Notes under the pieces: generated by a model
Told to the model about the DNA's origin: nothing
The model's input: the letters and a program-made list of their open reading frames with translations, nothing else
Databases searched by the model: none
Program-made: the position numbers and the translations under genes
Assembly: GCA_963663765.2 (NCBI GenBank)
Contig: CAXXUA010000015.1
Span: forward strand, 160,001-224,000
DNA length: 64,000 nt
From: Candidatus Poribacteria bacterium
Lineage (GTDB): Bacteria > Poribacteria > WGA-4E > WGA-3G
Direction: 5' to 3'
Part shown: piece by piece, positions 2,074 through 36,399 of the stretch
Numbering within the stretch: position 1 is the first letter of the stretch
Layout of the letters: each line of letters starts with the position of its first letter

Positions 2074-2079
2074 ATTGTT

Positions 2080-18320: not shown

Positions 18321-19133
18321 ATGAAATCAAAAAGAATGTTGTTTATTTTATTTTTCATCTTGGTATTGCAGACGAATTACCTTTCTGGTCAAGTGGTTGA
18401 GAATGGATTAGTCAGTTATTGGAGTTTTGACAATGCAGATGTACAAGGTAGCACAGTTAGAGACCTTGTCGGTCGAAATGATGGAACACTTGTAGGGGAT
18501 CCGCAGCAAATCAGTGGTAAATTTGGGGATGCGTTTCAATTTGACGGAGCACCCGATGCGATTGATGTAGGCAGTTCAGATGATGGTAGTCTGGATTTTG
18601 GAGAGGATAAAGATTTCTCAATGATGGGATGGATAAAAGTTGACAATCCACCAGAAACAGATGGGGGAGAATCAACCATTATCAGTAAGGGTGATGGGGG
18701 TAACAACGCCAGATTTCTTTGGAAAATCGCAGGTACTCAAGTATTCGTGACAATTGCGAACGAAGCGGGAGCTGGACCGAAAGTCAATTTTACATCAGCA
18801 ATGGATGTGGTTGATGGGAATTGGCATCATGTTGTCGTAGTTGCGGACAGGTCAGAATGGACCCGCATCTATATTGATGGTAAGTTTGATGCGGAAGCAG
18901 GAGCAACTGAAGGTACAAATGTTACCACAGAATCCCGTATGTATATCGGTGCGTCTGTGCGTATTGGGGAAACAACAAGACGATATTTTGAAGGTTTAAT
19001 TGATGAAGTGGGGATCTATAACCGTGTGCTGACAGAGAATGATATATCACATAATTTCAATTCACAGGGACTTGCTGTCAGTCCTCAAGAGAAACTTACA
19101 ATTACATGGGGAGAAATAAAGGCTACAAGATAA
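18321..19133 (+). CDS. Secreted LamG-like jelly-roll (Laminin_G_3) protein
   Basis: Signal peptide, GLVSYWSFD, WHHVVVV, FEGLIDEVGIYNRVL, and AVSPQEKLTITWGEIK tail. Confidence 0.9.
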   Translation: MKSKRMLFILFFILVLQTNYLSGQVVENGLVSYWSFDNADVQGSTVRDLVGRNDGTLVGDPQQISGKFGDAFQFDGAPDAIDVGSSDDGSLDFGEDKDFSMMGWIKVDNPPETDGGESTIISKGDGGNNARFLWKIAGTQVFVTIANEAGAGPKVNFTSAMDVVDGNWHHVVVVADRSEWTRIYIDGKFDAEAGATEGTNVTTESRMYIGASVRIGETTRRYFEGLIDEVGIYNRVLTENDISHNFNSQGLAVSPQEKLTITWGEIKATR

Positions 19134-19150
19134 TAGTCACATCACCCACA

Positions 19151-19990
19151 ATGAAGAAAGACATCAAATACCTACACATCAAAAAACAGCAAAAGCATCG
19201 GATTAGTGTGCTTACCTGCTACGATTATCCCACCGCTTGCATGCAGGACAAAGCAGGTATAGACATCGTTTTTGTTGGAGATAGTGTTGGGACGAATATT
19301 CTCGGTTATAAGAGCGAGATGGAGGTGACGATGTCTGATATGGTTCATCACCTCAAAGCAGTCCGTCGTGGTGTGACAGATGCGTATCTTCTTGTTGACA
19401 TGCCCTACGGTTCTGATAGGCATGAAAAACAAGCTGTTATGAATGCAAATCTTTTCTTAGATAATGGGGCTGATGGCGTTAAGTTGGAAGGTGGAACGGA
19501 GAAAGCACCAATTGTTACTGAACTTACCGATAAGGGAATAGAAGTGTGTGCGCACATCGGCCATAACCCGCAAATCCACGGAACTAAAGCGCTAACACAC
19601 GGAAAGACGATTAGCAAAGCAAAGGAACTCATTCAAACGGCATCGGTACTTGCAGATGCAGGTGCGAAATTGATCGTGCTTGAGAAAATCACTGAAGAGG
19701 TGAGTCAAATTATCACTGGGACGGTTGATATTCCTACTATTGGCATCGGTGCAGGCAGGTACTGTGATGGTCAGGTGCTCGTTATCAACGATGTATTAGG
19801 CATCGGTCCACCATTCAAACACGCCAAACGTTATCAGGATTACAACCAACTCACCTTTGAGGCGATATGTCAATATAGACAAGAGGTAGAAAACGGAGAT
19901 TTTCCAAGAGATGAAAATGTTTCTCACATCGCTGCCGATAAGTTGATGCGGGTTCAGAAGTGGTTGGAATCAGAACGTTGTAATTTTTAA
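19151..19990 (+). CDS. panB: 3-methyl-2-oxobutanoate hydroxymethyltransferase
   Basis: LTCYDY, VGDSVG, VDMPYGS, VKLEGG and TIGIGAGRYCDGQVLV. Confidence 0.95.
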   Translation: MKKDIKYLHIKKQQKHRISVLTCYDYPTACMQDKAGIDIVFVGDSVGTNILGYKSEMEVTMSDMVHHLKAVRRGVTDAYLLVDMPYGSDRHEKQAVMNANLFLDNGADGVKLEGGTEKAPIVTELTDKGIEVCAHIGHNPQIHGTKALTHGKTISKAKELIQTASVLADAGAKLIVLEKITEEVSQIITGTVDIPTIGIGAGRYCDGQVLVINDVLGIGPPFKHAKRYQDYNQLTFEAICQYRQEVENGDFPRDENVSHIAADKLMRVQKWLESERCNF

Positions 19991-20603: not shown

Positions 20604-20723
20604 ACTCAATGAACCAATTCCAGCATATCAGGAGCCAGGAATTTGTTGTACTAGAAAACAAATTACCTGAAACACGAATATAAAATAGGAGTCAGAACTT
20701 TACGGTTTTCTATTTCTTTTCTC

Positions 20724-23087
20724 CTACCGTTCCAATCCCTTAAGGACTTCATCCCAATCCCAGACAAGAATTGTGCCATCTGCACCGCTCGTAGCAAGCG
20801 TTGTTCCATCCTCAGAAAATACAAACTCTGATATCCAATTTGAGTGTCCTGCAAGAGAAGAAATTATCTTACCGGTAGTTGAATTTCGCAATTGAATGAT
20901 TCCATCCCTATTCACACTAAGAAGAATTGAACCATTTGGAGGAAATGTAATTGCTGATAGAGGCTTAGATTGGGATACATCTTCCAATTGCGCTGTACGG
21001 TCGTATTGGATTGTTTCAGGATTCCATGTATAAATGTGTGAACCACCGACAAAGGCGTTTCTGTCTGGTGCAAATGCTACTGAGCCTTGGCCTGGATAAG
21101 ATGCAAGTAACTCACCGGTCATGGTTTCCCACACTCTTATTGTTACGTCCTTATATGTCCAACCTGAGGTAACGACAGTTTTATTATCAGGAGAAAATGC
21201 CAAACTGTAGACGTAAGTCGTATGGCCCTTAAGTCTACAACGAGTTTTACGGTTAGGTACATCCCATATTTGTATAGTATTGTCTTTACGTGCAGTTACT
21301 GCAAGGAGTTGACCGTCAGGAGAAAATTTCACTTTATTTCCAAAACCAGCATATTCTTTCTCACCTATTGTAGATAAAACAGCTTTTGTCTGAGTATCCC
21401 ATAAGCGCACTACATTATCAGTGGTTACAAACAGACTCCCGTCTGGTGATATGGCAACTTCATAGCCGAAATGATCGCTTCTTTCAACTCTATCAAAAGA
21501 AAGTCTGTTTCCAGTATCAATATCCCAAACCGAAACGAATAAATGGGATTTACTTGCACCTAAACTGGTAAGTGTACTGTTAGAAGCGTCATGAACATTG
21601 GATTGGTTGATAGCGTTGAATGCCAATGCGGTTTGCGATTCAGTGTGTCGTGTAAATGCATATTGTTGCTTTCCTGAATCGGAATCCCATAAACGGATAG
21701 TCCCATCAGAATTCACACTGACCACTTTTTTCCCATCTGGTGAAAAGTCTATTGCGGTGAATTTTGAGTTATCAGCATGTCCTTTTAACAATTTGTGAGG
21801 TCTAGGTTTACCTGTGTTATTAAGGGATCGGTCAGAGATGGATTGTTTTCCGTGTTTATCAACCTTCCAGAATCTCACTATTCCATCAGTACTCCCACTG
21901 GCAAGAAGAGAACCATCAGGTGAGAATACTATAGCTTGGAACGGATCCACAGCTTTAAATGTATACTGAAGCGAACTATTTTCAACATCCCACATTTTTA
22001 CTACATTGGAACTATCAGCATAGACAAGTGTTCTGCTATCTGGAGAAAAAGCCAATGTCTCTATATCATGCTCTGATTCTTCTAATGGGAATACACACTG
22101 TCCAGTGGTTCTGTCCCACACCTGGATTATGGGTATCTTATATTTATTACCAAAATACCTATTATCATTTGCAGCTGCAAGAAACCTTTCATCTGGTGAG
22201 ATTGCAATCTGCATTCTCATATTCATCATGCTCAGTCTTGTTTTAATTGACTTATTTGGATCATCATCAAGAATCCACAAGTCCGTTCTCACATACCAGG
22301 GTAGATTCATCTTCCATCCAGAATATGAGAGTTTTATGTTTTCTGCTCTAAATTGTAGGAAATATTTATTACGACGTAGATCCGGTAGAATAGTTTTCAA
22401 AATGTCTTCTTCTAAATCCCATAAGTCCTTATCCTCATCTAAGTCTTTACATAAAATGGTGCTGCGGTCAATAGGACTCACAAGCATATTGATGTATGAT
22501 CTGTCAATACTTTGATTTTCAAGTTCACTATCAGGAAATAGTGCAATTTCTTCACCCGTATTTGCATCGTAAATCCAAATACCTATGGTTGTTTCAACGG
22601 CTAAATGTGTGCTGTCTGGCGTGAATTTTATTCCACGAACACGTCCCTTTCCTAATCGCGCTTTCGCTGCTTTCGGTAGTTCCCATTTTGTGTAATCTTC
22701 CGATGTTTCGTCTGCTTGTGCTTCCGCAATTGCAGTTGAGGTATCATTAGGTTGTTCAAGGTTAATACGGTTTCCTAGTGCGTTTTCAACCTGTGTTCGC
22801 ACATCAGGATTAGATTCCAAGTTTACAACTATAGGTGCATCAACGATCTCAACCGTCACATCTGAAGCAGCATCTAAACTGTACGGTTTCTGAAACATTT
22901 GCAAGAATTTACTATTTCCGAAACCAAGCACCAGCAACACTACTACTAACGTGGAAGCTGCTACTGCCGACAGCACTAAACGTTTACTGCTTGACGGTGT
23001 TGTGGGTTTGGTACGCGAAATGTTTTGCATCATGGTTTCTCTCAGATTTGGATTGATTTTGAAATTGTCTAAAACCTCTCTTATCAT
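20724..23087 (-). CDS. Membrane-anchored WD40 protein (intact part of a decayed ECF-WD40 fusion)
   Basis: Uninterrupted ORF from GGAGG-N5-ATG at 23087; TM helix (AVAASTLVVVLLVLGFG); many WD40 repeats. Confidence 0.75.
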   Translation of the reverse strand: MIREVLDNFKINPNLRETMMQNISRTKPTTPSSSKRLVLSAVAASTLVVVLLVLGFGNSKFLQMFQKPYSLDAASDVTVEIVDAPIVVNLESNPDVRTQVENALGNRINLEQPNDTSTAIAEAQADETSEDYTKWELPKAAKARLGKGRVRGIKFTPDSTHLAVETTIGIWIYDANTGEEIALFPDSELENQSIDRSYINMLVSPIDRSTILCKDLDEDKDLWDLEEDILKTILPDLRRNKYFLQFRAENIKLSYSGWKMNLPWYVRTDLWILDDDPNKSIKTRLSMMNMRMQIAISPDERFLAAANDNRYFGNKYKIPIIQVWDRTTGQCVFPLEESEHDIETLAFSPDSRTLVYADSSNVVKMWDVENSSLQYTFKAVDPFQAIVFSPDGSLLASGSTDGIVRFWKVDKHGKQSISDRSLNNTGKPRPHKLLKGHADNSKFTAIDFSPDGKKVVSVNSDGTIRLWDSDSGKQQYAFTRHTESQTALAFNAINQSNVHDASNSTLTSLGASKSHLFVSVWDIDTGNRLSFDRVERSDHFGYEVAISPDGSLFVTTDNVVRLWDTQTKAVLSTIGEKEYAGFGNKVKFSPDGQLLAVTARKDNTIQIWDVPNRKTRCRLKGHTTYVYSLAFSPDNKTVVTSGWTYKDVTIRVWETMTGELLASYPGQGSVAFAPDRNAFVGGSHIYTWNPETIQYDRTAQLEDVSQSKPLSAITFPPNGSILLSVNRDGIIQLRNSTTGKIISSLAGHSNWISEFVFSEDGTTLATSGADGTILVWDWDEVLKGLER

Positions 23088-23633
23088 TGTTTCCTCCATC
23101 TGTAAACGCTGCTGTGCGCGGCGGAGCCGACTCTTCACTGTATTTGCTGATACGCCTAAAAATGCCCCTATCGCTGTACACGACATCTCTCCGAAGTAAT
23201 GCAACGGTTACAAAGGTGCGTTCACTTTCCGCCAGTTTCGCAAGCAGTTTATTGACTACATCGCGTTGAATTTCTGGGGTGATCCGTTCGTTTTCTGCTA
23301 TTACATGTTCAGAATATGTTGTTCTTTCAGTTTGCACCTCATCCATATCTTGTGCTAATTTTATCCGTCAATACCGTTTACGTAACCACGTGTTACAAAG
23401 ACTCGTAGCAATCACATATAACCAACTTGAAAAACGTATTGGTTGCTTTAACATCCAAGTTTCTGATATGCTTTCAAAATGTATACTGTGTAATCTCTGC
23501 GGCGATGTGATAATCTCCGATTTTTCGCCACACAAGCGCGTGAACCTGCTTCTGATATTTTTCTGCAAGTTCCGGAAAGCCTTATCATCACCTTCAAGCA
23601 TCCGATGAATTAATTGTGTATCGTTGTTTTCAT
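23088..23633 (-). pseudogene. Decayed ECF sigma-factor domain
   Basis: Aligns to the start of 30233-33193 with at least five single-base indels and a CGA>TGA stop at 23368-23370. Confidence 0.9.
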
Positions 23634-23658
23634 GGTTTACCTCAGATTTCACACTTTA

Positions 23659-23688
23659 GTGACACTGCGAAATGGTGAATCGAGTGCA
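23659..23688 (-). promoter_or_regulatory. Putative ECF promoter TGCACTC-N17-TGTCAC (degenerate)
   Basis: Same spacing and similar position as the motifs before the two intact ECF genes. Confidence 0.6.
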
Positions 23689-23816
23689 TATTTCTAAAAA
23701 AATAGAAGTGTGTTTTTAGAAAAGAGCGTTAGAGAGTCATTCGTAAATATGAAATCTAAAGGGAATTATAGGGGACTATATCAAAGTATTGTCAGTTAGT
23801 TGATAATAATTCTCTT

Positions 23817-23938
23817 CAGGACTTACGCACCCAACGGTAGGCGTGCTTTGTAAGCGCGCTGGAAGCACAAATAATGTTGAAAATCACATCATTTTCATCA
23901 CAATTCTTGATTGGATCATGAAAACTGCGTAAGTCCTG
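23817..23938. mobile_element. MITE with CAGGACTTACGCA TIRs, 5-bp TSD and REP cargo
   Basis: Perfect 13-bp TIRs; CTCTT at 23812-23816 and 23939-23943; the paralogous region at about 27290-27315 lacks it; carries GGTAGGCGTGCTTTGTAAGCGCGC. Confidence 0.9.
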
Positions 23939-24184
23939 CTCTTGTTAGTAGAATTAATTATACCACAAATCTGGTTTCTTGCGCGAATTTCCATTAGAAT
24001 TAGATTTTCATGGAAGTTTTTTTCTCAAGATTTACGTATAGTTTGGCTAAACGATATTCTTTTGAAATGTATAGCATGGAAGGTGTATTTGCAGTGCAAG
24101 CTTATTTCTTACACTGCAAGTTTTTATGTGAGTTAACAATATTCAACTGCTTTAACGGTGGTACTTCTAACTACCTAAACACTT

Positions 24185-27100
24185 TTATTCTCCCTCCTTT
24201 AAATCTGCAAGGATTTCATCCCAATCCCAGACAAGAATTGTGCCATCATACCCCGTACTCACAAGTGTTTTTCCATCAGGTGAAAATAGTAACTTTACAA
24301 TTGTTCTTGTGTGTCCATCAAGCGTAGTGAGTTTGTCTCCTGTGGTAATATCCAATAACTGAATTCCACCACTCGCAAGTCCTACAACAAGCATGGTTTC
24401 ATCTGGTGAAAACACCAATTCATTGCCATATACTTTGGACACTTCCTTAAAGTGCGTTTTTTTCTGGCTGCCGAACAGACGAATCTTTTCAAAGTTTCCC
24501 GCAGCGATCAGAGACTCATCTGCAGAGAATGCCAAGGCGAAGATTTGCTTCTGAAACATAGTTTGAATCATAGAATCAATATCATTTTCCATTGGTTCCT
24601 CTATTTCATCTCCTATTAAGAAGTTGGTTAACTCCTCTCCAGTTTCCGCATTCCATATTTGAACTTTACCTTGTGAGTCTCCACTGACAAGTTTTTTACC
24701 ATCCCGTGAGAATATTATAGTGCTAATCTGAAACATCATAGACAGGGAGATTTCTGTAAAAGGCATAATTAGAATTTTGTCCGTATCTGTATTCCACAAG
24801 CGGATTCCATCTGAACCACCAAGAGCCACCGTTTTCCCATCGGGTGAAACTGCCATTGCTGAAACATTCCTATCCTTTGGTTCCGTCAAAAGGTCTAATT
24901 CATGACCAGTTCGGACATCAATTAAGTGAATCAGTTGCTGATGAGCTATTGCGAGTTTTGTCCCATCAGGCGAAAAGGCTAAGCTTGATAACCAATCGCA
25001 ATGCCATTTAGTCTGTAGGTTAGATTTCCGTTGTGTCTTAAGATCCCAAAAGGTAAGTATGCCGTTATATGCTATACTTGCAAGCGTATTACTATCTTTT
25101 AAAATTGCCATTCCTCTTTGTGTATATGCATGATCGGAAATTTGTATTGGTAATGGATTATTTGTTTCTGTATTCCAAAACAGAACTGTCCCATCTGCAC
25201 TTGCACTTGCAAGCGTTGTACCGTCTGGTGAAAAAGTTAGCGCAGTTATGCCGTCGATATTTTCAGTAAGTGTCGTGAGTAGTTTGCCAGTCTCTGTATC
25301 CCACAACTGCACTGTACTCTCTGAATCCCCACTTGCTAACAATTTTCCGTTCGGAGAAAATGCAAAATGTCGAACGGAGACATTTGTTCTACCTGTGTGT
25401 TTTCTGAGGATTATCGGTTCATTATTTCCAGTAGTATCCCACAATAGAACTGTTGCATTTTCGCTCCCAACAGCAAGTTGAGATCCATCAGAGGAGAATG
25501 CTATTCCTAAGATATGGTCGTTTTTTCCCATTTCAAAAGATATTTCTTCCTGAACGTCCCCTTGTTCAAATTGGTCCGATTGTCCTCTGGGGATTGGTAG
25601 TTTTTTGCCTGAAATTGGGTCCCATAATTGAATCTTGCCGGACACTCCACCAACCGCTAATTTATCATGTGTAATTGCATAGGATTCACTATAAGCTTCA
25701 TCCTTTGGACGTTCTCTGAAAGTTTTTAGGTTCATTTTTCCTGTTTCAATATTTAAGTTGGCAATTGTATCTCCCCAATCCCCCAAACTGATAATCGTCT
25801 TTCCATCTTCAGAAAACAACAATGCTGAGGCAGGAGGAGGACTCTTGGCAAGTGTAACTTGTTTACCTGTAGAAACTTCCCACAATTGGACTTCCTCTCC
25901 ATGATTTCTACCACTCCCACCACCACCATTAGCAAGAAAACGTCCATCAGGTGAAAAAGCAAAGGATTGACACGCACCAGGGAGCATAGATAATTCCTTG
26001 CCTGTTTTTGCATCGTAAAGCCACACACCGATACTACTACCTACTGCGAGTAACGTGCCGTCGGGTGAAAACTGCATTGTATTAATTCCACCTTTTCCCA
26101 AACGCGCTTTCGCTGCTTTCGGCAACTCCCATTTTGTGTAATGTTCCACTATTTCGTCTGCTTGTGCATCTGCAACTGCTGCAGAAACGTCATTAGGTTG
26201 CTGTTTAGGGTTATTGATTTTACTCTGAGCGTTAGCACTTTCTATTTGTGCTCGCGCATCGGGCTTGGATTCTAAGTTTGCAACTATAGGTGCGTCAACG
26301 ATCTCAACCGTCATTTCTGTGGTAGCATCGAGACTATAAGGTTGCTGAAAAAGTGTCAAGTATTTACTATTTCCAAAACCGAGCATGAGCAACACTACTA
26401 CTAACGTGGAAGCTGCAACTACCCACGGTACTAAAGGTTTACTGCCGGACGGTGTTGCGGGTTTGGTCTGCGAAATATTTTGCATGATGTTATCTGTCAG
26501 ATTTGGATTGATTTTGAAGTTGTCTAAAGCCTCTCTTATCATTGTTTCCTCCTTTTGTAAACGCTGCTGTGCGCGGCGGAGCCGACTCTTCACCGTATTT
26601 GCTGATACGCCTAAAAATGCCCCTATCTCTGTACACGACATTTCTCCGAAGTAATGCAACGTTACAACAGTGCGTTCACTTTCCGCAAGTTTCGCAAGCA
26701 GTTTATTGACTACATGGCGTTGAGTTTGTCCAGATATGCGCTCGTTTTCTTCAACGACATAATCGGAGTACGCCGCCTTATCTAATTGTTCCTTGTCTGC
26801 TGACTTAAGATGCTCCAATGACTGTGTTGATAAACGCTTCTTACGCAGCCATGAACTGCAGCTGTTTGCTGCAATCACATAGAGCCAACCTACGAAACGT
26901 TGCGGTTCCTTCAGGGTTGCTAATCGCTTGTATGCTTGCAGGAATGTATCCTGCGTAATCTCTTCGGCTATATGAAAATCTCCGACTTTCCGCCACGCAA
27001 GCGCGTGAACTTGCTTTTGATATTTTCTTACAAGCACGGAAAAAGCGTCGTCATCGCCTGTGAGGACACGTTGAATAAGCTTAACATCGTCGTTTTTCAT
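24185..27100 (-). CDS. ECF sigma factor fused to a TM helix and WD40 beta-propellers
   Basis: Sigma2 (IAEEITQDTFL, GWLYVIAAN), sigma4 HTH (TEIGAFLGVSANTVKSRLRRA), TM helix, more than 10 WD40 repeats. Confidence 0.92.
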   Translation of the reverse strand: MKNDDVKLIQRVLTGDDDAFSVLVRKYQKQVHALAWRKVGDFHIAEEITQDTFLQAYKRLATLKEPQRFVGWLYVIAANSCSSWLRKKRLSTQSLEHLKSADKEQLDKAAYSDYVVEENERISGQTQRHVVNKLLAKLAESERTVVTLHYFGEMSCTEIGAFLGVSANTVKSRLRRAQQRLQKEETMIREALDNFKINPNLTDNIMQNISQTKPATPSGSKPLVPWVVAASTLVVVLLMLGFGNSKYLTLFQQPYSLDATTEMTVEIVDAPIVANLESKPDARAQIESANAQSKINNPKQQPNDVSAAVADAQADEIVEHYTKWELPKAAKARLGKGGINTMQFSPDGTLLAVGSSIGVWLYDAKTGKELSMLPGACQSFAFSPDGRFLANGGGGSGRNHGEEVQLWEVSTGKQVTLAKSPPPASALLFSEDGKTIISLGDWGDTIANLNIETGKMNLKTFRERPKDEAYSESYAITHDKLAVGGVSGKIQLWDPISGKKLPIPRGQSDQFEQGDVQEEISFEMGKNDHILGIAFSSDGSQLAVGSENATVLLWDTTGNNEPIILRKHTGRTNVSVRHFAFSPNGKLLASGDSESTVQLWDTETGKLLTTLTENIDGITALTFSPDGTTLASASADGTVLFWNTETNNPLPIQISDHAYTQRGMAILKDSNTLASIAYNGILTFWDLKTQRKSNLQTKWHCDWLSSLAFSPDGTKLAIAHQQLIHLIDVRTGHELDLLTEPKDRNVSAMAVSPDGKTVALGGSDGIRLWNTDTDKILIMPFTEISLSMMFQISTIIFSRDGKKLVSGDSQGKVQIWNAETGEELTNFLIGDEIEEPMENDIDSMIQTMFQKQIFALAFSADESLIAAGNFEKIRLFGSQKKTHFKEVSKVYGNELVFSPDETMLVVGLASGGIQLLDITTGDKLTTLDGHTRTIVKLLFSPDGKTLVSTGYDGTILVWDWDEILADLKEGE

Positions 27101-27147
27101 TTAGACACCTTGGAAGAAATGGTTACATCACTCAGGATTTATAAATT

Positions 27148-27177
27148 GTGACGCTACTTAGGTGTGCAACGGGTGCA
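27148..27177 (-). promoter_or_regulatory. Putative autoregulated ECF promoter TGCACCC-N17-CGTCAC
   Basis: Bipartite motif conserved among paralog upstream regions while the spacer diverges; CGT-containing -10 is typical of ECF promoters. Confidence 0.7.
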
Positions 27178-27305
27178 TAATTCTGCAAAATTGAAGTGTG
27201 TTTAGATAAGAGAGTAAGAGATTCATTCGCAAATATGAATCTAAAGGGAATTATCGCGTACTATATCAAAAATATCGTTTATTTTGCTGATTATAATTTC
27301 CCTGT

Positions 27306-27420
27306 TAGTAGAATTTACAATTAATGGGACAGATCACAACGTGCAGGGAAACCCTGTCCCTACGGGTTTTGTGGTAGTTCCAAGTTCATTGAAATGTCTC
27401 TATAATTCTAATCTTTACTA
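27306..27420. mobile_element. Degenerate TA-ended MITE-like element with REP cargo
   Basis: Imperfect 26-bp inverted ends (about 19/26); internal CAGGGAAACCCTGTCCCTAC (inverted GTAG REP). Confidence 0.45.
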
Positions 27421-27443
27421 TAGAAATGGTGTTATCTGGTTTA

Positions 27444-29129
27444 TTATTCTATATTTGGGTCTAATTCCTTTGCTTTTGCAAAGTCTACTATTGCATCTTC
27501 GTGATGTCCGAGTGCTTGTTTTGCTTTGCCTCGATTGTTGTATGCCTTAGCATATTTTAAGTTTAGTCTGATAGACATATCGTAATCTTCAATTGCACCT
27601 TCATGATCCTCAAGGGCAGCTTTTGCAGCACCGCGATTGTAATGGATAGCAGTGCGGCATGCGTCACATTCCATTTCTGACTGGATAGCTTCATCGCTGT
27701 CTGAGATGATTTCTTGATATAAGTTTTGCGCTGCTTCCGTATTCCCTTGTCGACTTTTAAGTTGTGCTAACTGATGTTTCACCTGTCCAATGTGATTATA
27801 GATGTATAGTCCTTTTAGTTTGCGGTTGATTGCTTCACTATAATCGTTTATCGTTCCTTGATATAATTTTCTTGCTTCTTTCAAGTTTCTGTGTTTTGAT
27901 TCAAACTGACCGAAAATATATTTTGCCATTCCCCGACTGTGGTAAGATTTTGCACGTTTCGGTTTTTTATTCATAACTTCGGAAAGATCGGCTATTGCCT
28001 CTTTATATGATTTTTTTGCTATATACAAATACTTCTGCTTTTTTTCAATGGGTTCCTGATTGATAACATCAGTAAACTCATCAATTATCGCTTGATATAT
28101 ATTCAATACATCTGATATTTCTCCTTCTGCAATTTTTCTTTTGGTAAAATGGAACCTAACTTTTGCTTGAATTTCGAACCAAGTGCCTTCTCCAACTAAC
28201 TTCCTTGTGAGTCTTTGAAAGCCTGAAACTAAAGAAAGTTTGATAAAACGACTCTGCCAAGAAAAGAATAACCCAAAACATGTAAGACTAAATCGTTCTC
28301 GATTGAGTTTATAAGCTGAGAGTGTATTGAGAAGAAATTCGTCTCGTTTTTCTAAGTAGAACATCACTGAAGCTCTGTTTCTGTAGACATCAGCCAAATC
28401 TGGATTGAGTCTAATGGCATCATCGTAGCATGCGATTGCCTCCTTAATGTCTCCATGTTGACGGCTAAGATATGCATCATAAGATTTTACATAAGCTTGA
28501 ATGCGTGGACGTTTTTGCCAGGTATCAAGTGATTCCACTTCATTCGTTTCATTCAACAAGTTTTTGAGAAGATTTGAGGCGATGTTTGTCCCCTCACTGG
28601 ATTCAGCTTCATCAACTGGTGGACTTCCAGAGCTGATAATAGCGATAACTTCACCTTTCGTATTCAGCACTGGGCTGCCACTATACCCCTGCATATCAGT
28701 CATATTGAACTCTGCGACGATATGTTTACCACTGTTTCGGATACTATTGACAGTGCCTTCCACGCGGTTTGTTTTCTTCTTACGATGTCCAAAAACACAG
28801 ATTTGTTCACCTTTGCGAACTTTCTTACTATTGCCGAGGGAAAATGGTGTACCTTCCTCTACGACCTTAAGAACAGCGAGGTCGTTTATGTCATCAAATG
28901 CGATGATACCTTCAACGGTATAGTCAGTTTCTGTATTGATGCATTTCGCAGTGATTGTTGATGCGCCAGCAATGACATGAACGTTGGTTGCGATTTTGTC
29001 AGATTCAATGAAAAACCCATTGCCTAAAGCATTAGATTTGTCCTCCTTATATTTCTTTTTCAAGCGAACCGTTGTTCCTATGAATTCTACTGTGTTCTGC
29101 AGGGATATATCATCTCTTTCTTGTTCCAT
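27444..29129 (-). CDS. Trypsin-like serine peptidase with C-terminal TPR repeats
   Basis: Catalytic triad motifs ATNVHVI, NDLAVL and GYSGSPV; TPR consensus (AYNNRGKAKQALG). Confidence 0.9.
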   Translation of the reverse strand: MEQERDDISLQNTVEFIGTTVRLKKKYKEDKSNALGNGFFIESDKIATNVHVIAGASTITAKCINTETDYTVEGIIAFDDINDLAVLKVVEEGTPFSLGNSKKVRKGEQICVFGHRKKKTNRVEGTVNSIRNSGKHIVAEFNMTDMQGYSGSPVLNTKGEVIAIISSGSPPVDEAESSEGTNIASNLLKNLLNETNEVESLDTWQKRPRIQAYVKSYDAYLSRQHGDIKEAIACYDDAIRLNPDLADVYRNRASVMFYLEKRDEFLLNTLSAYKLNRERFSLTCFGLFFSWQSRFIKLSLVSGFQRLTRKLVGEGTWFEIQAKVRFHFTKRKIAEGEISDVLNIYQAIIDEFTDVINQEPIEKKQKYLYIAKKSYKEAIADLSEVMNKKPKRAKSYHSRGMAKYIFGQFESKHRNLKEARKLYQGTINDYSEAINRKLKGLYIYNHIGQVKHQLAQLKSRQGNTEAAQNLYQEIISDSDEAIQSEMECDACRTAIHYNRGAAKAALEDHEGAIEDYDMSIRLNLKYAKAYNNRGKAKQALGHHEDAIVDFAKAKELDPNIE

Positions 29130-29139
29130 TAACGTTTTA

Positions 29140-29227
29140 TACCGAATTAACGTGAGTCGTCTTGCTAAGTGTGCGGTTAGGAAACCGCACCTACCGTTGG
29201 AAAAAGATAAATTACGTTAATTTGGTA
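29140..29227. mobile_element. Short MITE-like element with REP cargo
   Basis: TACCGAATTAACGT / ACGTTAATTTGGTA (13/14); internal GTGCGGTTAGGAAACCGCACCTACC. Confidence 0.7.
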
Positions 29228-29258
29228 TTACTCCTATTTTGTCTATTCGTGTGCAGAT

Positions 29259-29343
29259 TTATTACCAAACTTCGGGTTTCATTCTTTTGCTCTTGCTGCT
29301 TCGTGCAGTCCGAGTGCTTGTTTTGATAGTTCACAGTCGTTAT
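29259..29343 (-). pseudogene. Remnant 3' end of a TPR-peptidase paralog
   Basis: Translates to YNDCELSKQALGLHEAARAKE*, similar to YNNRGKAKQALGHHED...AKE; 18-bp identity GTCCGAGTGCTTGTTTTG with about 27506-27523. Confidence 0.55.
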
Positions 29344-29490
29344 ATTACAATTTATGAAGTTTCTGTGGGGATTTTAGGTCCACGAAAAACATTCAATTAA
29401 GTATTGAAATGTAGTGTTGTTTTTTTGCAGAACACAGATGCAATTTGCACATTAGGTGAAAATCTGTTGATGCTCGTTGTTATGGTGATG

Positions 29491-30003
29491 TCAGTCGTTT
29501 TCTGTAATATATTTCTGTAGTGTTTTCACTACAATATTAGCCGTTTTTTCCATTTCACCAGGTTGTTTTGAAAACAGTAACAGCCCGATTTGAGTATGAT
29601 TTATCAGATTGTGGGTTTTGCGGTTTACAAAGTCCCAGTTTGCAGTTGCTATGTGTTTTCTAAGAACACTATTGTCAAAATAACGAATGAATTGCACTGA
29701 TGCTGCGATGTTTCCCAATTTTTGTGTAGGGCTCTTTCGGGGTTCTAAGAATGCTACTGTCAAAGTGTATCTGATATCTTTATCGTATTTTAAAACTGGT
29801 TCTACATTATCAAGTATCTTGATTGCCTCAAGTAAAGCATCTTCACCGTGCTTTTTGATGCCGTCAGTTTCTGCCTTGACTTTTACATAGACCTTTATTT
29901 TTTGGGCAAGTGTCGTCTCGTTTCCAGGTATACCCTCCAAAGACAAAGTAATAAGACTTAGAGATATACTCAATATCAATAAGCCAATCAAATATTTTCG
30001 CAT
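29491..30003 (-). CDS. Hypothetical exported protein
   Basis: RBS-like GGAAGGA before MRKYLIGLLIL; N-terminal hydrophobic segment; no recognised domain. Confidence 0.6.
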   Translation of the reverse strand: MRKYLIGLLILSISLSLITLSLEGIPGNETTLAQKIKVYVKVKAETDGIKKHGEDALLEAIKILDNVEPVLKYDKDIRYTLTVAFLEPRKSPTQKLGNIAASVQFIRYFDNSVLRKHIATANWDFVNRKTHNLINHTQIGLLLFSKQPGEMEKTANIVVKTLQKYITEND

Positions 30004-30232
30004 TACGTCCTTCCTTTGTGTTGTTAGTGGGGGATTTTGCGTACCCCATTGGATGCCACATTGCAAATAAAATAGTTTGACCAGCAGACATTGTTAGTAC
30101 ATGCTTCTGCTTCGTAGATTGAATTTATGGCACTTTTTGACAATATATTTTCAAGCAATTTTCAGTAATGTGCAAAACCGAAAACTATTTATTTCGTATT
30201 TTTTAAATTTCACCATAACTGGACGAGTCCTC

Positions 30233-33193
30233 TTATTTTGCAGCACCAGACGAACTTTTGAGAATTTTATCCCAGTCCCACACAAGAATTGTGCCGTCTT
30301 GTCCCGTGCTGGCAAGTGTTTTGCCATCAGGTGAGAACACCAACGTTTGCACTGGCGCAGTGTGTCCATCAAGTGTAGTGAGTTTGTCTCCTGTTTCCGT
30401 GTCCCATAACTCAATTCTATGATTATTAAGTCCAGCAACAAGGATGCGATTGTCTGGTGAAAATATAAATGCTTCAACCGTTTTAACACTTTGGGACACT
30501 TCCTTAAAAGTGATAGGTTCCTTAATTTCAATCAAACGGATTTGTTTGAGAGTTGACATAGCAAGCAAATTGCCATTTGGCGAGAATGCCAGTGTATCAA
30601 TACTTTCCTTATAATAGATGCCACTGTTATCAGATTTGCCGCTGAATACCGGTTCCTCTCCAGTAAAAAGAAGTGTTAACAGAACTCCAGTTTTCGCATC
30701 CCACATCTGCACTTTTCCGTCCTTGGTTCCACTGACAAGTTTTTTACCGTCTGGTGAAAAAACTAAAGCATTGATTTTAGACTTAATCTTTCGCTCTCGC
30801 TTTCGCTTGCGCTTAATGTTCTGATATGAGAGGGATATATCAGGGAGAGATATATCAGTAGTCTCACCTGTCTCTGTATTCCATAGGCAAATCTCACCAG
30901 ATGTACCGAATGCCACCGTTTTTCCATCAGGTGAAAAAGTCACGGGTGATGCATAACCTTCTTTCGCAGCCAAAGTCTGCAACTCACGTCCTGTCCTAAC
31001 ATCACTCAGACGAACCAGTGGGAAAGCACTATTACCTTTTATTACATTTACACCGGAGCTGGCGAACTTTGTCCCATCAGGTGAAAACGCTGAAGTCGAT
31101 ACCATCCAATCTCTATGGCTTTCTGGGTAGAAATTGATTTTTTGTAAGGCATTCGAACCTGTTTTTTGTGATGTTTTCGCATCCCAAATGCTAATTACCT
31201 GATCATAAGCGACACTTGCAAGCGTGGTGTTATCTTTAAAGAAAGTTACTGCTTCCACCTCCATTGTGTGTCCGGTGATGCGTGTGGGTAATAGATTCCC
31301 ATTATTGATATTCCAAAATCGGACTGTGCCATCTGCACTTCCACTGGCAAGTGTGCGATTATCTGGTGAAAACATTAAAGCATTGATGCCGCCAGTATGA
31401 CCTGTGAAAGTTGTGATAGGTTCACCAGTGGCGATATCCCACAATTGCACTGTCTTATCTCTCCCTCCGCTGGCAAGCATTTTTCCATCCGATGAGAATG
31501 CTAACGCGTTGACCCACCCCGTGTGCTTGTCAAGGTAAATAGATTCCTTGCTGTTGATATCCCATAATTGTAATGGAACTATTTCATTATTATTTTTACC
31601 TGCACTCGCGAGACGGGTGCCATCAGGTGAAAATTCCAAGGCTAAAAGAGATATGTTTCCCTTGAGTGTAAACAGTATTTTGCCGGGTATTTTGCCGGTT
31701 GTTGTGTCCCACACCTCAATCTTGGTTCCTACGCCAATTGCAAATTTATCATGTGTGAGCGCATAGCATCCAGGATCAACGAACTTCCCTGGGTGTATCT
31801 GTCCTTCAATATGTTTCCACATTCCTTTGCCGGTTTCAACATCCAGCCGGCTGAATGAGTCTCCCTCGTCACCCAAAGCAAAAAGTGTTTTGCCATCTGC
31901 AGAGAACCGTAATTCTGAAGCATTCGGCAAAAAACGAGTGAGTTGCATTTTCTGACCGGTAACTACTTCCCACAACTGCAGTCCCATTGAGTAAAACCGG
32001 GTTCCCTTTCTGCGTAAACTGCCAATACTACCTGCAAGGAAGCGTCCGTGTGGAGAAAATGCGATGGATTCGTACTTACCGGGGAACATGGATACTTCTT
32101 TACCTGTTTTCGCATCATATAGCCACAAACCGATATCACTGCCTACCGCGAGTTGCCTACCATTTGGTGAGAATTGTAGCACATTTATCCCACCTTTTCC
32201 CAAGCGCGCTTTCGCCGCTTTCGGTAACTGCCATTGTGTGTAATCTTCCACTATTTCGTCTGCTTGTCCATCTGTATTTGCTGGAGAGGTATCATTAGCT
32301 TGCTGTTCAGGATTATTGATTTTACTCTGAGCGTTAGCACTTTCTATTTGCGTCCGAGCATCTGACTTGGATTCTAAGTTTGCAACTATAGGTGCGTCAA
32401 CGATCTCAACTGTCATTTCTGAGGTAGCATCGAGACTATAAGGTTGCTGAAAACGCGTTAAGTATTTACTATTTCCAAAACCGAGTATGAGCAACACTAC
32501 TACTAACGTGGAAGCTGCAACTACCCACGGCACTAACGGTTTACTGCTTGACGGTGTTGCGGGTTTGGTCCTTGAAATTTTTCGCATGATGGTTTCCGTG
32601 AGATTTGGTGAGATTTTGAAATTGTCTAAAGCTTCTCTTATCATTGTTTCCTCCTTTTGTAAACGCTGCTGTGCGCGGCGGAGCCGACTCTTCACCGTAT
32701 TTGCTGATACGCCTAAAAATGCCCCTATCTCTGTGCACGACATTTCTCCGAAGTAATGCAACGTTAAAACAGTGCGTTCACTTTCCGCAAGTTTCGCAAG
32801 CAGTTTTTTGACGACATCGCGTTGAGTTACTGCGGTGATCCGTTCATTTTCTGATATTACATGTTCAGAATAAGTTGTCTTTTCAATTTGCACTTCATCT
32901 ATATCCTGCGCTAATTTTGCCCGTCGATACCGTTTACGTAGCCACGTGTTACAAAGACTCGTGGCTATCACATATAACCAACTTGAAAGACGTTTTGGTT
33001 GCTTTAACGTTCCAAGTTTCTGATATGCTTTCAGAAATGTATCTTGTGTAATCTCTTCGGCTATGTGGAAATCTCCGATTTTCCGCCATGCAAGCGCGTG
33101 AACCTGTTTTTGATATTTTTTCAAAAGTTCCGCAAAGGCAGTATCATCGCCATCAAGAGTACGGTGAATTAATTGCGTGTCGTTGTTTTTCAT
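30233..33193 (-). CDS. ECF sigma factor fused to a TM helix and WD40 beta-propellers
   Basis: GGAGGTGA RBS; same sigma2/sigma4/TM architecture as 24185-27100; WD40 repeats. Confidence 0.92.
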   Translation of the reverse strand: MKNNDTQLIHRTLDGDDTAFAELLKKYQKQVHALAWRKIGDFHIAEEITQDTFLKAYQKLGTLKQPKRLSSWLYVIATSLCNTWLRKRYRRAKLAQDIDEVQIEKTTYSEHVISENERITAVTQRDVVKKLLAKLAESERTVLTLHYFGEMSCTEIGAFLGVSANTVKSRLRRAQQRLQKEETMIREALDNFKISPNLTETIMRKISRTKPATPSSSKPLVPWVVAASTLVVVLLILGFGNSKYLTRFQQPYSLDATSEMTVEIVDAPIVANLESKSDARTQIESANAQSKINNPEQQANDTSPANTDGQADEIVEDYTQWQLPKAAKARLGKGGINVLQFSPNGRQLAVGSDIGLWLYDAKTGKEVSMFPGKYESIAFSPHGRFLAGSIGSLRRKGTRFYSMGLQLWEVVTGQKMQLTRFLPNASELRFSADGKTLFALGDEGDSFSRLDVETGKGMWKHIEGQIHPGKFVDPGCYALTHDKFAIGVGTKIEVWDTTTGKIPGKILFTLKGNISLLALEFSPDGTRLASAGKNNNEIVPLQLWDINSKESIYLDKHTGWVNALAFSSDGKMLASGGRDKTVQLWDIATGEPITTFTGHTGGINALMFSPDNRTLASGSADGTVRFWNINNGNLLPTRITGHTMEVEAVTFFKDNTTLASVAYDQVISIWDAKTSQKTGSNALQKINFYPESHRDWMVSTSAFSPDGTKFASSGVNVIKGNSAFPLVRLSDVRTGRELQTLAAKEGYASPVTFSPDGKTVAFGTSGEICLWNTETGETTDISLPDISLSYQNIKRKRKRERKIKSKINALVFSPDGKKLVSGTKDGKVQMWDAKTGVLLTLLFTGEEPVFSGKSDNSGIYYKESIDTLAFSPNGNLLAMSTLKQIRLIEIKEPITFKEVSQSVKTVEAFIFSPDNRILVAGLNNHRIELWDTETGDKLTTLDGHTAPVQTLVFSPDGKTLASTGQDGTILVWDWDKILKSSSGAAK

Positions 33194-33218
33194 GGATCAC
33201 CTCCGATATTACACTATA

Positions 33219-33248
33219 GTGACGTTATGAAACAGTGAATCGGGTGCA
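33219..33248 (-). promoter_or_regulatory. Putative autoregulated ECF promoter TGCACCC-N17-CGTCAC
   Basis: Boxes identical to those at 27148-27177, about 25 nt upstream of the start codon. Confidence 0.7.
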
Positions 33249-33288
33249 TAATTCTGTAATAGGAGTGTGTTTGTATAAGAGAGTCTAT

Positions 33289-33319
33289 TAGGTTGGGTTG
33301 AGGAACAATACCCAACCTA
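33289..33319. repeat. REP-like hairpin at a gene end (possible terminator)
   Basis: 10-bp stem TAGGTTGGGT / ACCCAACCTA overlapping the stop of the 33317 gene. Confidence 0.55.
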
Positions 33320-35521: not shown

Positions 35522-36399
35522 TTATAGTGATATCCAAAAATATGTCTACACTCACTGGTAGGTTCCAGGGTTATTTAGTTTTAAGAATTATCAGTTGATG
35601 GGTGTTACTAAAAGTTTATATCGTAGGTCGGGTAGAGCGATAGCGAAACCCGTAGGTGTCAACTTAAGAAAAAGCCAAGTGCTAAATACCCCATCCCGGT
35701 AGGCGTGCTTTGTAAGAGCGCCGATAAACACAGGATTTGCAACGGCGCGCTTACAAAGCACGCCTGCAGTTGGGGAGCGCGCTTACAAAGCACGCCTGCA
35801 GTTGGGGAGCGCGCTTACAAAGCACGCCTGCAGTTGGGGAGCGCGCTTACAAAGCACGCCTGCAGTTGGGGAGCGCGCTTACAAAGCACGCCTGCAGTTG
35901 GGGAGCGCGCTTACAAAGCACGCCTGCAGTTGGGGAGCGCGCTTACAAAGCACGCCTGCAGTTGGGGAGCGCGCTTACAAAGCACGCCTGCAGTTGGGGA
36001 GCGCGCTTACAAAGCACGCCTGCAGTTGGGGAGCGCGCTTACAAAGCACGCCTGCAGTTGGGGAGCGCGCTTACAAAGCACGCCTACCTTGAGTGAGAAA
36101 ATCGGGGTTTCAAGGTTTCCCTCTTACAATAATATGAACCGCTAAGTTGACACCTATGGGTAGAGCGATAGCGAAACCCGACATGACAACTACAATCAAT
36201 ACATGTCGGGTTTCGCTATCGCTCTACCCGACCTACGCATCTAATTCACGAATGTTATAAATATATGCAAAAACTACTAAAACTAAATAACCCTGGATAG
36301 GTTCGGTTTCTAACCAATGCAGAATACCATGCGCGTATTCTGCATTGGTTAGAAACCGAACCTAACGTCGTGTTGAAGTAATTATGGATTTTACTATAA
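35522..36399. mobile_element. Nested MITE/REP composite (three TIR pairs and three REP families)
   Basis: TIR pairs at 35522/36399, 35566/36295 (9-bp TSD GGTAGGTTC/GATAGGTTC) and 35653/36156 (flanked by a 23-bp duplication). Confidence 0.85.
35745..36088. repeat. Perfect 32-bp tandem array (10 full units plus a terminal core) of an inverted GTAG-REP
   Basis: GCGCGCTTACAAAGCACGCCTGCAGTTGGGGA every 32 bp from 35745 to 36065; opposite-orientation copy at about 35698-35722. Confidence 0.95.

Follow-up and report, generated by a model that had tools for sequence, protein, structure and literature searches.

Three minus-strand paralogs (A, B, and C) of a family of ECF sigma factors fused to WD40 proteins, all lying in the 64,000-nucleotide stretch of a Candidatus Poribacteria genome analyzed here (the window), carry an in-frame ATG preceded by a Shine-Dalgarno (SD) sequence right where the sigma part gives way to its extension (Table 1). 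We propose that this is a lineage-specific internal initiation site that would give rise to a sigma-less, membrane-anchored WD40 isoform, a reading of the sequences to which we would give roughly even chances. The host is a sponge-symbiont-type bacterium (Poribacteria).

Paralogs B and C are of the ECF (group 4) sigma-70 type, with regions 2 and 4 only. Pfam places Sigma70_r2 at residues 23-90 and Sigma70_r4 at residues 131-180 or 131-183 of the C protein, and Sigma70_r4 at residues 134-183 of the B protein; for B and C, respectively, the E values are 3e-14 and 6e-13 for Sigma70_r2 and 2e-12 and 8e-13 for Sigma70_r4_2, the Sigma70_ECF match spans residues 6-185 in both, and the TIGR02937 sigma70-ECF model returns 100 and 95 bits at a cut-off of 42.9. 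Further along, a Kyte-Doolittle scan finds one hydrophobic region in each of the three proteins, visible as overlapping windows above 1.6 and peaking at residues 220-238 in C, and WD40 propeller families match the C-terminal part of A, B, and C strongly in a family search. The predicted family layout consists of a cytoplasmic ECF sigma of ~185 aa, a linker of ~36-39 aa, one transmembrane (TM) helix, and an extracytoplasmic WD40 beta-propeller region of ~630-650 aa. This Poribacteria ECF-fusion family is very large, with at least 7664 long homologs in the protein collection (E ≤0.001). No functional link was found to the neighboring genes, which encode a trypsin-like/TPR protein, a diphthamide-synthase-like protein, an oxidoreductase, PanB, and a lectin-fold protein.

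Table 1. Features of the three paralogs, in window coordinates
Feature	Position	Strand	Description
Paralog A, sigma-less ORF	20724..23087	(-)	Intact, 787 codons from ATG 23087..23085: short cytoplasmic tail, one TM helix, WD40 repeats
Paralog A, TM segment	22923..22979	(-)	Equivalent to that of B (Kyte-Doolittle)
Paralog A, candidate internal initiation region	23085..23099	(-)	ATGGAGG with GGAGG at 23097..23093, spacer AAACA, ATG 23087..23085
Paralog A, decayed sigma-coding part	23205..23633	(-)	Former ATG 23633..23631; from alignment with B and C
Paralog A, lesions	After 23631, 23575, 23477, 23455; 23370..23368; 23207	(-)	1-nt deletions at the first four; CGA to TGA at 23370..23368; 1-nt insertion at 23207
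Paralog B	24185..27100	(-)	Intact 971-aa ECF sigma / single TM / WD40 fusion gene
Paralog B, TM segment	26378..26434	(-)	LVPWVVAASTLVVVLLMLG, residues 223-241, best 19-residue Kyte-Doolittle window
Paralog B, candidate internal initiation region	26540..26554	(-)	AAGGAGG 26554..26548, spacer AAACA, ATG 26542..26540, Met187
Paralog C	30233..33193	(-)	Intact 986-aa ECF sigma / single TM / WD40 fusion gene
Paralog C, TM segment	32480..32536	(-)	Equivalent to that of B (Kyte-Doolittle)
Paralog C, candidate internal initiation region	32642..32656	(-)	AAGGAGG 32656..32650, spacer AAACA, ATG 32644..32642, Met184

An earlier, sequence-only reading of this DNA had drawn attention to GGAGG-AAACA-ATG in the three genes, and the motif is indeed present and in frame in all three, an in-frame start codon with an SD at a working distance of 5 nt, within the peptide QKEETMIRE in B and C and QMEETMIRE in A. 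Its placement at the sigma/extension boundary holds as well (M187 in B, M184 in C), since Sigma70_r4 ends at residue 183 and the ECF-type profiles stop at about residue 184, and the G-ending codons that form it are minority ones (among 82 family members, AAG encodes 31% of Lys residues and GAG 35% of Glu residues). The cautions attached to that reading were equally sound: synonymous permutation of the codons for K-E-E produces GGAGG in ~11% of cases, so the window alone is not beyond chance, and the three copies are not independent but paralogs, 89-93% identical from sigma4 to the TM helix, as recent duplication or gene conversion would explain. Nucleotide constraint across the whole family over the same stretch was considered and rejected, synonymous divergence there being ordinary across 82 homologs. 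It takes the addition of 80 loci from other Poribacteria genomes for an excess of GGAGG over chance to emerge. The description of all three as ECF-WD40 genes was inaccurate, as the sigma part of paralog A is broken by six lesions.

An Rfam search of the entire window returned no matches; the conserved stretch is therefore not accounted for by any known RNA element. A sigma-70 promoter scan of positions 20600-33500 counted 38 sites against 31.6 ± 6.5 in shuffles, none of them on the minus strand within the stretches that code for sigma ahead of the internal ATG; this gives no sign of a separate internal promoter of the sigma-70 kind, ECF-type promoters lying outside the scope of the scan.

The internal SD is as strong as those of true starts. 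With a canonical anti-SD assumed, the predicted duplex has a median of -11.6 kcal/mol at the internal ATG, compared with -9.3 kcal/mol at genuine starts and -1.7 kcal/mol at 1362 other ATG triplets, 1.8% of which reach -8 kcal/mol. On the same assumption, the predicted duplex at the internal ATG (-11.6 kcal/mol in B and in C) exceeds that at the gene's own start, which is -10.8 kcal/mol in C and -3.9 kcal/mol in B. The own starts of these genes mostly have GGAGG 5-7 nt before the ATG (6 nt upstream in C), indicating that host ribosomes read such an SD. In the first kilobase, the least-structured mRNA occurs in two regions, the genuine start and the internal site, with a mean 40-nt dG of about -1 to -2.5 at the latter versus -5.4 overall. 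Most of this dip comes from the K/E/N/I-rich peptide (shuffled codons -4.6 versus a typical -6); at the site, the real codons give 1.1 kcal/mol less structure than synonymous shuffling does, the highest value of 28 offsets.

Retention of the site was followed in 82 homologs, comprising the 80 loci from other Poribacteria genomes (56-82% amino acid identity), B, and C. GGAGG occurs within the 15 nt before the Met column in 46 of the 82 (56%), compared with 11.2% in synonymous permutations, and no other GGAGG column recurs in the first 345 codons, the runner-up being found in 6/82. Elsewhere in the same genes the motif is depleted by 37% (133 observed versus 211 ± 11 expected). At column 183, AAG supplies 41 of 59 Lys codons (background 31%) and AGG 10 of 12 Arg codons (background 8.7%); at column 184, GAG supplies 58 of 73 Glu codons (background 35%). 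Ranked by G-ending fraction, column 184 is first of 30 Glu columns and column 183 third of 26 Lys columns, yet per-column synonymous tests do not make them outliers, with three other Glu columns having GAG fractions of 0.74-0.79, and pairwise synonymous divergence at columns 183 and 184 is ordinary (observed/expected 1.3 and 0.88).

The SD also tends to travel with the start codon: GGAGG is present in 46 of 67 ATG rows and in none of the 15 rows without an ATG (Fisher p = 6e-7, before any correction for relatedness). Corrected on a tree, the coupling lies above 0.05, with 8 independent pairs giving ~5 co-losses, none in the opposite direction, and 3 unchanged (sign test, median p = 0.06). The remaining 21 of the 67 ATG rows have no GGAGG, and one clade of 16 rows keeps the Met in every row with GGAGG in only 2 and mostly AAA/GAA codons. 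The Met column is a hydrophobic position, occupied by I/V/F in 15/82 close homologs, by I/V/L in 20 of the best 120 protein matches, and by L/I/V or another residue in 57/120 more distant cluster representatives. As judged from these sequences, the internal site is lineage-specific and dispensable, not family-wide, because the Met is replaced in some close and about half of the distant homologs and because a clade keeps the Met without the SD. The synonymous-site comparison that the sequence-only reading had put forward as its check gave a divided answer, with GGAGG retained far above the ~11% expectation but with AAA/GAA codons in the 16-row clade and ordinary divergence at columns 183-184; and the loss of Met and free use of AAA/GAA, which that reading had named as evidence against itself, were in part observed.

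Paralog A is a natural copy with a dead sigma part and an intact ORF downstream. Its decayed region is 86.9% identical to C at the DNA level and retains only a region-4 remnant recognizable by Pfam, and all 6 disabling lesions fall in the first 427 nt, with 0 in the next 2481 nt, a distribution with a chance of ~1e-5. The internal ATG is the sole SD-preceded start ahead of the TM segment and is the only plausible start of the ORF that survived sigma decay. Automatic annotation misreads such loci: the database holds A as a 769-aa WD40 protein (P0270), starting 18 codons downstream of the internal ATG. Paralog A may be just a dying gene, since truncated and frameshifted copies are common in the family.

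Comparable proteins exist elsewhere in the protein collection. Twelve of the best 150 cluster representatives of the post-sigma segment start exactly at the internal Met. The proteins related to the WD40 part of A include P0280 (790 aa, with 7 member sequences) and P0275 (758 aa), which begin with MIRE/MIKE, as well as P0286, which has lost its sigma by in-frame deletion, and P0272 and P0277, which have an apparent signal peptide in place of the sigma. The Met-starting proteins are not independent proof of translation, as gene callers favor an SD-preceded ATG. Conversely, the sigma-only proteins P0385 (186 aa, ending in KEET) and P0388 (184 aa, ending in QKE; 4 member sequences) terminate at or next to the site. 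Since the forms without sigma and those with sigma alone share 70-89% identity with fused relatives, they look like derived products of splitting or decay, not like ancestral forms.

The site could also be a by-product of the coding sequence, in which K-E-E-(T/P)-M is maintained for the sake of the protein, the peptide continuing the last sigma4 helix with the Met as a buried hydrophobic residue, while the GGAGG is inherited and drifts slowly; there would then be no meaningful initiation in intact genes, and A would be a pseudogene or have gained its start after sigma decay. We see this as a real possibility, though not a probable one. Interchange of the Met with I/V/L/F, the 11% chance level of GGAGG, other Glu and Lys columns with similarly high G-ending fractions, the ordinary divergence of columns 183-184, and the many broken copies in the family all fit such an origin, as does an AlphaFold helix that runs unbroken across the Met from residue 167 to 194, at a confidence falling from ~70 (residues 161-180) to <50 after residue 190. 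It is harder to reconcile with a motif that is depleted elsewhere in the genes yet kept here in more than half of them, that never occurs without the ATG, and that equals genuine starts in SD strength, or with a synonymous choice that reduces structure exactly at the site and the skewed lesions of A.

Two further explanations assign the motif to history or to elongation. An ECF sigma gene may have been joined by mutation to a separate membrane-protein gene that had its SD in the sigma 3' end, with SD and ATG as leftovers, used or not; the position of the site exactly at the domain boundary and the endings of P0385 and P0388 suit this scenario, but we think it quite unlikely, because a leftover SD should have eroded where synonymous sites are otherwise saturated, because a complete sigma lies upstream in 101 of the best 150 post-sigma representatives and a partial one in 19, extending down to ~32% identity (E 1e-15), and because the separate forms look derived. 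The same 101 complete sigmas, and the closeness of sigma-less to fused forms, leave the suggested origin from an ECF/anti-sigma gene pair without support. SD-like sequences have also been held to cause ribosome pausing, a published but disputed idea, and a pause after sigma4 might aid domain folding or membrane targeting with no initiation at all. The retention of GGAGG within an ORF is all that this would explain; pausing would not depend on an ATG, but none of the 15 non-ATG rows contains GGAGG, the TM helix is ~35 codons further on and so unsynthesized when the ribosome reaches the site, and the structure dip and 5-nt spacing fit initiation. We therefore regard a pausing role as most improbable.

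The proposal of internal initiation thus draws on SD retention, SD-ATG coupling, SD strength, the structure dip, the intact ORF of A, and the Met-starting database proteins, and is weakened by the loss of the Met in part of the close and distant homologs; to this extent the earlier suggestion of a full fusion plus a sigma-less isoform has partial support from sequence signatures. Ribosomes would initiate both at the gene's own start and at the internal GGAGG/5-nt A-rich spacer/ATG, and one gene would thereby yield two proteins, the complete sigma tethered to the membrane and a WD40 protein of ~785-800 aa that lacks the sigma but keeps the membrane anchor. Actual initiation in the intact genes is something we infer. 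The short isoform might tune signaling, e.g., through competition for the same ligand or protease or as a partner of the full-length sensor, and not as a classical anti-sigma factor.

That the isoform would be a built-in anti-sigma factor, as the sequence-only reading had suggested, found no support. The cytoplasmic segment between the internal Met and the TM helix has only ~36-39 residues and contains no Cys or His, and so cannot be a zinc anti-sigma motif; a class I anti-sigma domain (zinc-binding ASD, zf-HC2 type), of ~80-90 aa and often with H-x3-C-x2-C, is ruled out on length, composition, and the absence of a Pfam match. Pfam gave no matches at E ≤10 for the 159 aa after the Met, and a PDB sequence search with the same 159 aa gave a sole, irrelevant match at E = 0.94. 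In an AlphaFold model of residues 1-260 built on a 45-row alignment (mean pLDDT 59, <50 for residues 191-260), the post-Met segment is undocked on the sigma, at a confidence too low to decide docking, and a predicted complex of the sigma domain (1-186) with the post-Met segment (187-228) scored 0.11 against a mark of 0.32, which counts neither way.

Internal starts of this kind have precedents: the forms of IF2 and the short forms of ClpB and CheA arise from an SD-preceded in-frame internal start, which yields an N-terminally truncated product, one domain short, that modulates its longer counterpart. None of these, to our knowledge, is a sigma factor, and the short product predicted here would differ in losing the entire output (sigma) domain, both products being predictions in our case.

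ECF sigma factors that carry their own membrane sensor as a fused part are still poorly understood. In the available portions of the literature, IutY of Pseudomonas putida (ECF243) is described as one polypeptide with a cytosolic ECF sigma, a single TM segment, and a periplasmic domain, whose sigma is freed by the Prc and RseP proteases (PMC5411451, PMC8999054), and it is the only membrane-sensor-fused ECF named there as experimentally characterized for activation by proteolysis (PMC8999054). By analogy with this best-studied model, full-length B and C probably work along IutY lines. The likeness is one of architecture only, and membership of the IutY-type hybrids (ECF243, FecI-like sigma plus FecR-like domain) was rejected: in IutY the periplasmic anti-sigma domain is of the FecR type and an outer-membrane receptor serves as partner, whereas B and C place a WD40 region of ~630-650 aa outside, and neither Pfam nor the family search found a FecR-like family in the 159 aa after the Met, the rest being WD40. 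Nor do the available portions of PMC5411451 and PMC8999054 report an internal start in IutY, whereas B and C carry an SD-preceded internal ATG.

Compared by description only, the fusions resemble ECF57 in joining an ECF sigma to WD40-like repeats, in their multiple copies per genome, and, in part, in two cysteines. As far as the available text of the sources goes, ECF57 has WD40-like C-terminal extensions and ~5.3 copies per planctomycete genome (PMC8999054, PMC7826278), with a conserved cysteine in each of sigma2 and sigma4 (PMC8999054); it is described for Planctomycetes, and those portions make no mention of Poribacteria (PMC8999054, PMC7826278). In one of our alignments (A2, 34 sequences), Cys81 does not vary and Cys156 reaches at least 90% conservation; in another (A3), conservation is at least 90% at Cys81 and <90% at Cys156. 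WD40 domains are highly abundant in poribacterial genomes according to the available portions of PMC3909097, in which the word "sigma" is absent and a link between WD40 and a fused ECF sigma is not discussed, and P0272-P0274, as sigma-less relatives, correspond to these WD40 "eukaryote-like" proteins of Poribacteria. Our literature search found no paper joining Poribacteria, WD40, and a sigma factor and, at the level of titles and abstract openings, none on internal translation initiation of an anti-sigma factor that bears on the question.

A conserved internal start, if real, would be a new control layer, in which translation sets the ratio of signaling-competent to sigma-less sensor. Going further, a large Poribacteria clade might have replaced a separate anti-sigma gene with two products from one ORF, the sigma-less sensor copy acting as a built-in negative regulator or threshold setter and repeated sigma decay (A, P0280, P0275, P0286) releasing stand-alone WD40 "eukaryote-like" surface proteins, a broader scheme that we put forward as rather doubtful. 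These results link a very large ECF-fusion family with the known abundance of WD40 "eukaryote-like" proteins in Poribacteria, some of which prove here to be sigma-less derivatives of the fusions, and repeated sigma decay, if true, would account for some of the WD40 expansion seen in sponge symbionts.

The window genes B and C both encode fusions of an ECF sigma factor, one transmembrane (TM) helix and a WD40 domain. In profile searches, ECF profiles cover the first ~185 residues and stop at ~residue 184 (Sigma70_r2 at 23-89/90, Sigma70_r4 at 131/134-183); a short linker then leads to the sole hydrophobic segment of the protein (best 19-residue window: B, 223-241; C, 220-238), and the remaining ~630-650 residues strongly match WD40 beta-propeller families. 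A cytoplasmic sigma and a lone TM helix require the WD40 part to lie outside the cell membrane. P0272 and P0277, close relatives of the WD40 part of the third paralog, A, agree with this: in both, a hydrophobic N-terminal segment that looks by eye like a signal peptide directly precedes the WD40 region. The best named protein matches were annotated "sigma-70 family RNA polymerase sigma factor" from Candidatus Poribacteria bacterium. The same sigma-linker-TM module (~70-77% identical) is joined to non-WD40 outside parts in P0067, P0434, P0439, P0437, P0453, P0501 and P0502, for example to carboxypeptidase-regulatory-like domains or in a ~443-aa form without a Pfam domain, one cluster of which holds 96 member sequences; the N-terminal module looks like a portable cassette for signalling. 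A, B and C are preceded by regions (minus strand, 23634-23760, 27101-27230 and 33194-33320) that are 66-68% identical, and many family members and related loci have in common the upstream sequence ...CGTCACTATAG(G/T)GT(G/A)AAATCGGAGGTGATCC-ATG, which may be a promoter and leader that they share, possibly of an autoregulated ECF type. The gene between B and C (27444-29129, minus) encodes 561 aa, with a trypsin-like peptidase domain at the N-terminus and TPR repeats; a protease adjoining sigma fusions of a protease-activated type may or may not be meaningful.

Coordinates of the paralogs, their internal sites, the lesions of paralog A and tandem arrays in the window
Feature	Position	Strand	Details
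Paralog B	24185..27100	minus	intact, 971 aa
Paralog C	30233..33193	minus	intact, 986 aa
B internal site	AAGGAGG 26554..26548; ATG 26542..26540	minus	spacer AAACA; from sequence
C internal site	AAGGAGG 32656..32650; ATG 32644..32642	minus	from sequence
A internal site	GGAGG 23097..23093; ATG 23087..23085	minus	ATGGAGG; from sequence
A 1-nt deletions (four)	after 23631, 23575, 23477, 23455	minus	alignment with B and C
A nonsense codon	23370..23368	minus	CGA->TGA; alignment with B and C
A 1-nt insertion	23207	minus	alignment with B and C
Tandem array	35745-36085		32 nt x 10.7 copies, 100% identity; inside ORFs 35705..36145
Tandem array	2078-2399		53 nt x 6.1
Tandem array	2567-2774		32 nt x 6.5

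The sequence-only reading had reported a Shine-Dalgarno (SD) sequence and in-frame ATG at the sigma/extension boundary of A, B and C, and inspection of the sequence bore out the motif and its coordinates in each. Only seven GGAGG-N4-9-ATG sites followed by at least 100 open codons occur on the two strands of the 64-kb window together, among them the three internal sites and the own start of C (6-nt spacing). Synonymous permutation of the genes placed GGAGG before the 'Met' column, the alignment column of the internal ATG, in 11%, and the three copies are not independent because they are 89-93% identical over sigma4-TM, versus 65-87% over sigma2; by itself, the window motif is compatible with chance. 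On the plus strand, GGAGG-N5-7-ATG also lies within longer frames at 14850 (259 open codons upstream) and 19331 (92 open codons upstream), the latter in a PanB-like ORF (19106..19990) that overlaps ORF 18321..19133, and may be the real start of the PanB-like gene. An 18-nt repeat, TGGAGGAGGCTTTGATGG (x 3.1, 53075-53129), codes for a Gly-rich GGFDG-type repeat and gives several chance GGAGG-ATG matches. A 46-nt unit with an internal GC-rich palindrome, GGTAGGAGCGACCTCCTGGTCGCGACCGTAGGGGGTTACTCTGTTC, runs head to tail for 7.7 copies (48528-48880), with further copies near 48912-49079, 13061 and 15393-15530 and dispersed single copies elsewhere in the window; the array has no spacers and was rejected as CRISPR, and the unit had no Rfam match, an Rfam scan of the window giving 0 matches.

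A scan of genome contigs matched 587 stretches, 572 of them encoding relatives. The best 80 of these 572 (56-82% identity over the N-terminal 330 aa; 77 from Poribacteria MAGs, with L003, L022 and L071 from 'uncultured bacterium') formed, with B and C, a family set of 82 intact rows, A being excluded as broken. The 'Met' codon was ATG in 67 rows, ATA in 5, ATC in 3, ATT in 1, GTC in 2, GTG in 2, GTA in 1 and TTC in 1, and GGAGG occurred within the preceding 15 nt in 46/67 ATG rows versus 0/15 other rows (Fisher p = 6e-7, relatedness of rows ignored). A maximum-likelihood tree from which the motif columns had been left out required at least 10 changes of ATG, and across 8 independent pairs on well-supported branches GGAGG moved in the same direction as ATG in ~5, in the opposite direction in 0 and was unchanged in ~3 (sign test, median p = 0.06). 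Against a codon background of AAG 31%, GAG 35% and, for Arg, AGG 8.7%, column 183 has AAG for 41 of its 59 Lys and AGG for 10 of its 12 Arg residues, and column 184 has GAG for 58 of 73 Glu residues. In an empirical comparison of columns with the same tree as control, column 184 came first of 30 Glu columns by GAG fraction (three others reached 0.74-0.79) and column 183 third of 26 Lys columns by AAG fraction. Within the first 345 codons GGAGG recurs at column 183 only (next most frequent, 6/82) and elsewhere in family genes it is depleted (133 observed versus 211 +/- 11 in synonymous permutations); the family thus avoids the motif in general but retains it at a single place.

Own starts of family genes mostly carry GGAGG(T/C) 5-7 nt before the ATG, and this SD is therefore the one used by the organism. 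Assuming a canonical anti-SD (the organism's 16S rRNA 3' end lies outside the window), the anti-SD duplex had a median energy of -11.6 kcal/mol for the 67 internal ATGs, -9.3 for the 82 genuine starts, -5.7 for the 15 rows with another codon in that column and -1.7 for 1362 other ATG triplets (1.8% reach -8); the internal site of B, at -11.6, is far stronger than its own start, at -3.9. Across the 82 mRNAs, 40-nt windows averaged -5.4 kcal/mol in folding energy, and the first kilobase was least structured in two regions, the genuine start (~-2.2 to -3.2) and the internal site (~-1 to -2.5). Much of the dip at the internal site is owed to the K/E/N/I-rich peptide; at offsets 0 and +5 codons, real codons still lowered structure by 1.1 kcal/mol (s.e. 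0.26) relative to synonymous resamplings, the highest excess of 28 offsets, most others being negative.

We put at roughly even the chance that the internal SD/ATG is a real initiation site. The proposal that each gene yields a full fusion and a sigma-less isoform gains from SD retention, ATG coupling, SD strength and the structure dip, and loses from the absence of Met or SD in many homologs. At the 'Met' position, the 120 best protein matches (at least 71% identity over 300 aa, B and C included) had M 100, I 13, V 6 and L 1. The best 150 of 259 50%-identity cluster representatives matching the post-sigma segment (E up to 1e-3) included 120 reaching at least 26 aa upstream, with M in 63, L in 30, I in 14, V in 8 and others in 5; loss of Met in distant homologs, named beforehand as the outcome that would speak against the proposal, was thus found in part. 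Synonymous sites likewise gave a divided answer: G-ending codons are favoured at columns 183 and 184, but pairwise synonymous divergence there is ordinary (obs/exp 1.3 and 0.88) and one 16-row clade has Met in 16/16 rows and GGAGG in only 2. The position therefore behaves like a hydrophobic residue of a helix, with Met as the choice of one large subfamily; that the SD/ATG is a by-product of coding sequence is a distinct, though lesser, possibility. Over sigma4-TM, synonymous sites in the 82 rows are generally saturated, and hence this stretch holds no extended nucleotide-level element. Judged from these alignments, the SD/ATG pair is lineage-specific and repeatedly lost, evidence against a family-wide, essential feature. 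A role for the SD-like sequence as a pause element is very improbable.

The earlier suggestion of a fused gene pair, which would make the SD/ATG a relic of gene fusion, seems improbable: detectable post-sigma homologs are overwhelmingly fused, with 101 of the 150 best representatives carrying a full sigma upstream, 19 a partial one and 1 only 1-25 residues. Twelve begin exactly at the internal Met and 17 further down, 11 of these 19 residues downstream at a conserved Met206. Short sigma-only proteins occur as well, with P0385 (186 aa, ending ...KEET) and P0388 (184 aa, ending ...QKE, 4 member sequences) found amid many fragments that are frameshifted or cut off by contig ends. Among relatives of A's WD40 part (66-79% identity) are about a dozen ~975-aa full-length fusions, WD40-only forms, P0280 (790 aa, 7 member sequences) and P0275 (758 aa) with MIRE/MIKE N-termini, and P0286 (727 aa), in which an in-frame deletion takes out almost all of sigma. 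These predicted proteins, from gene callers that favour SD-preceded ATGs, show that TM-WD40 proteins without sigma have arisen repeatedly and in several ways; they are no demonstration that intact genes use the internal start.

In paralog A the homologous upstream region and all of the sigma-coding region (86.9% identical to C) are still present, and yet A is not the intact ECF gene it had been taken for: its sigma part carries six disabling lesions, all in the first 427 nt, and the next 2481 nt form a single open frame, a placement with a chance of ~1e-5 if lesions fell randomly over the gene. On the simplest reading, the TM-WD40 part of A would still be under selection, and hence made without sigma. 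The sole SD-preceded start of A before the TM helix is the ATG at 23087; in the protein collection A is P0270 (769 aa), starting 18 codons downstream of it.

Internal in-frame starts giving shorter isoforms and sigma/sensor fusions are known separately, and our literature search found no ECF fusion with a conserved internal start where sigma and sensor meet. The notion of an anti-sigma isoform finds no support in a cytoplasmic tail of only ~36-39 residues without Cys/His, which matched no Pfam or PDB entry and over which the AlphaFold model is too uncertain to reveal docking on sigma. In Planctomycetes, ECF sigmas with WD40-like extensions are known as group ECF57 (PMC8999054, PMC7826278), a candidate group for B and C. 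B and C share their order of sigma, one TM helix and outside domain with the experimentally studied hybrid IutY, whose sigma stays inactive until the protein is cleaved by Prc and RseP (PMC5411451, PMC8999054). By analogy with IutY, full-length B and C may be activated by regulated proteolysis. The short product would be a sigma-less sensor that has its ligand or protease and its place in the membrane in common with the long form, whose activation it would thereby tune.
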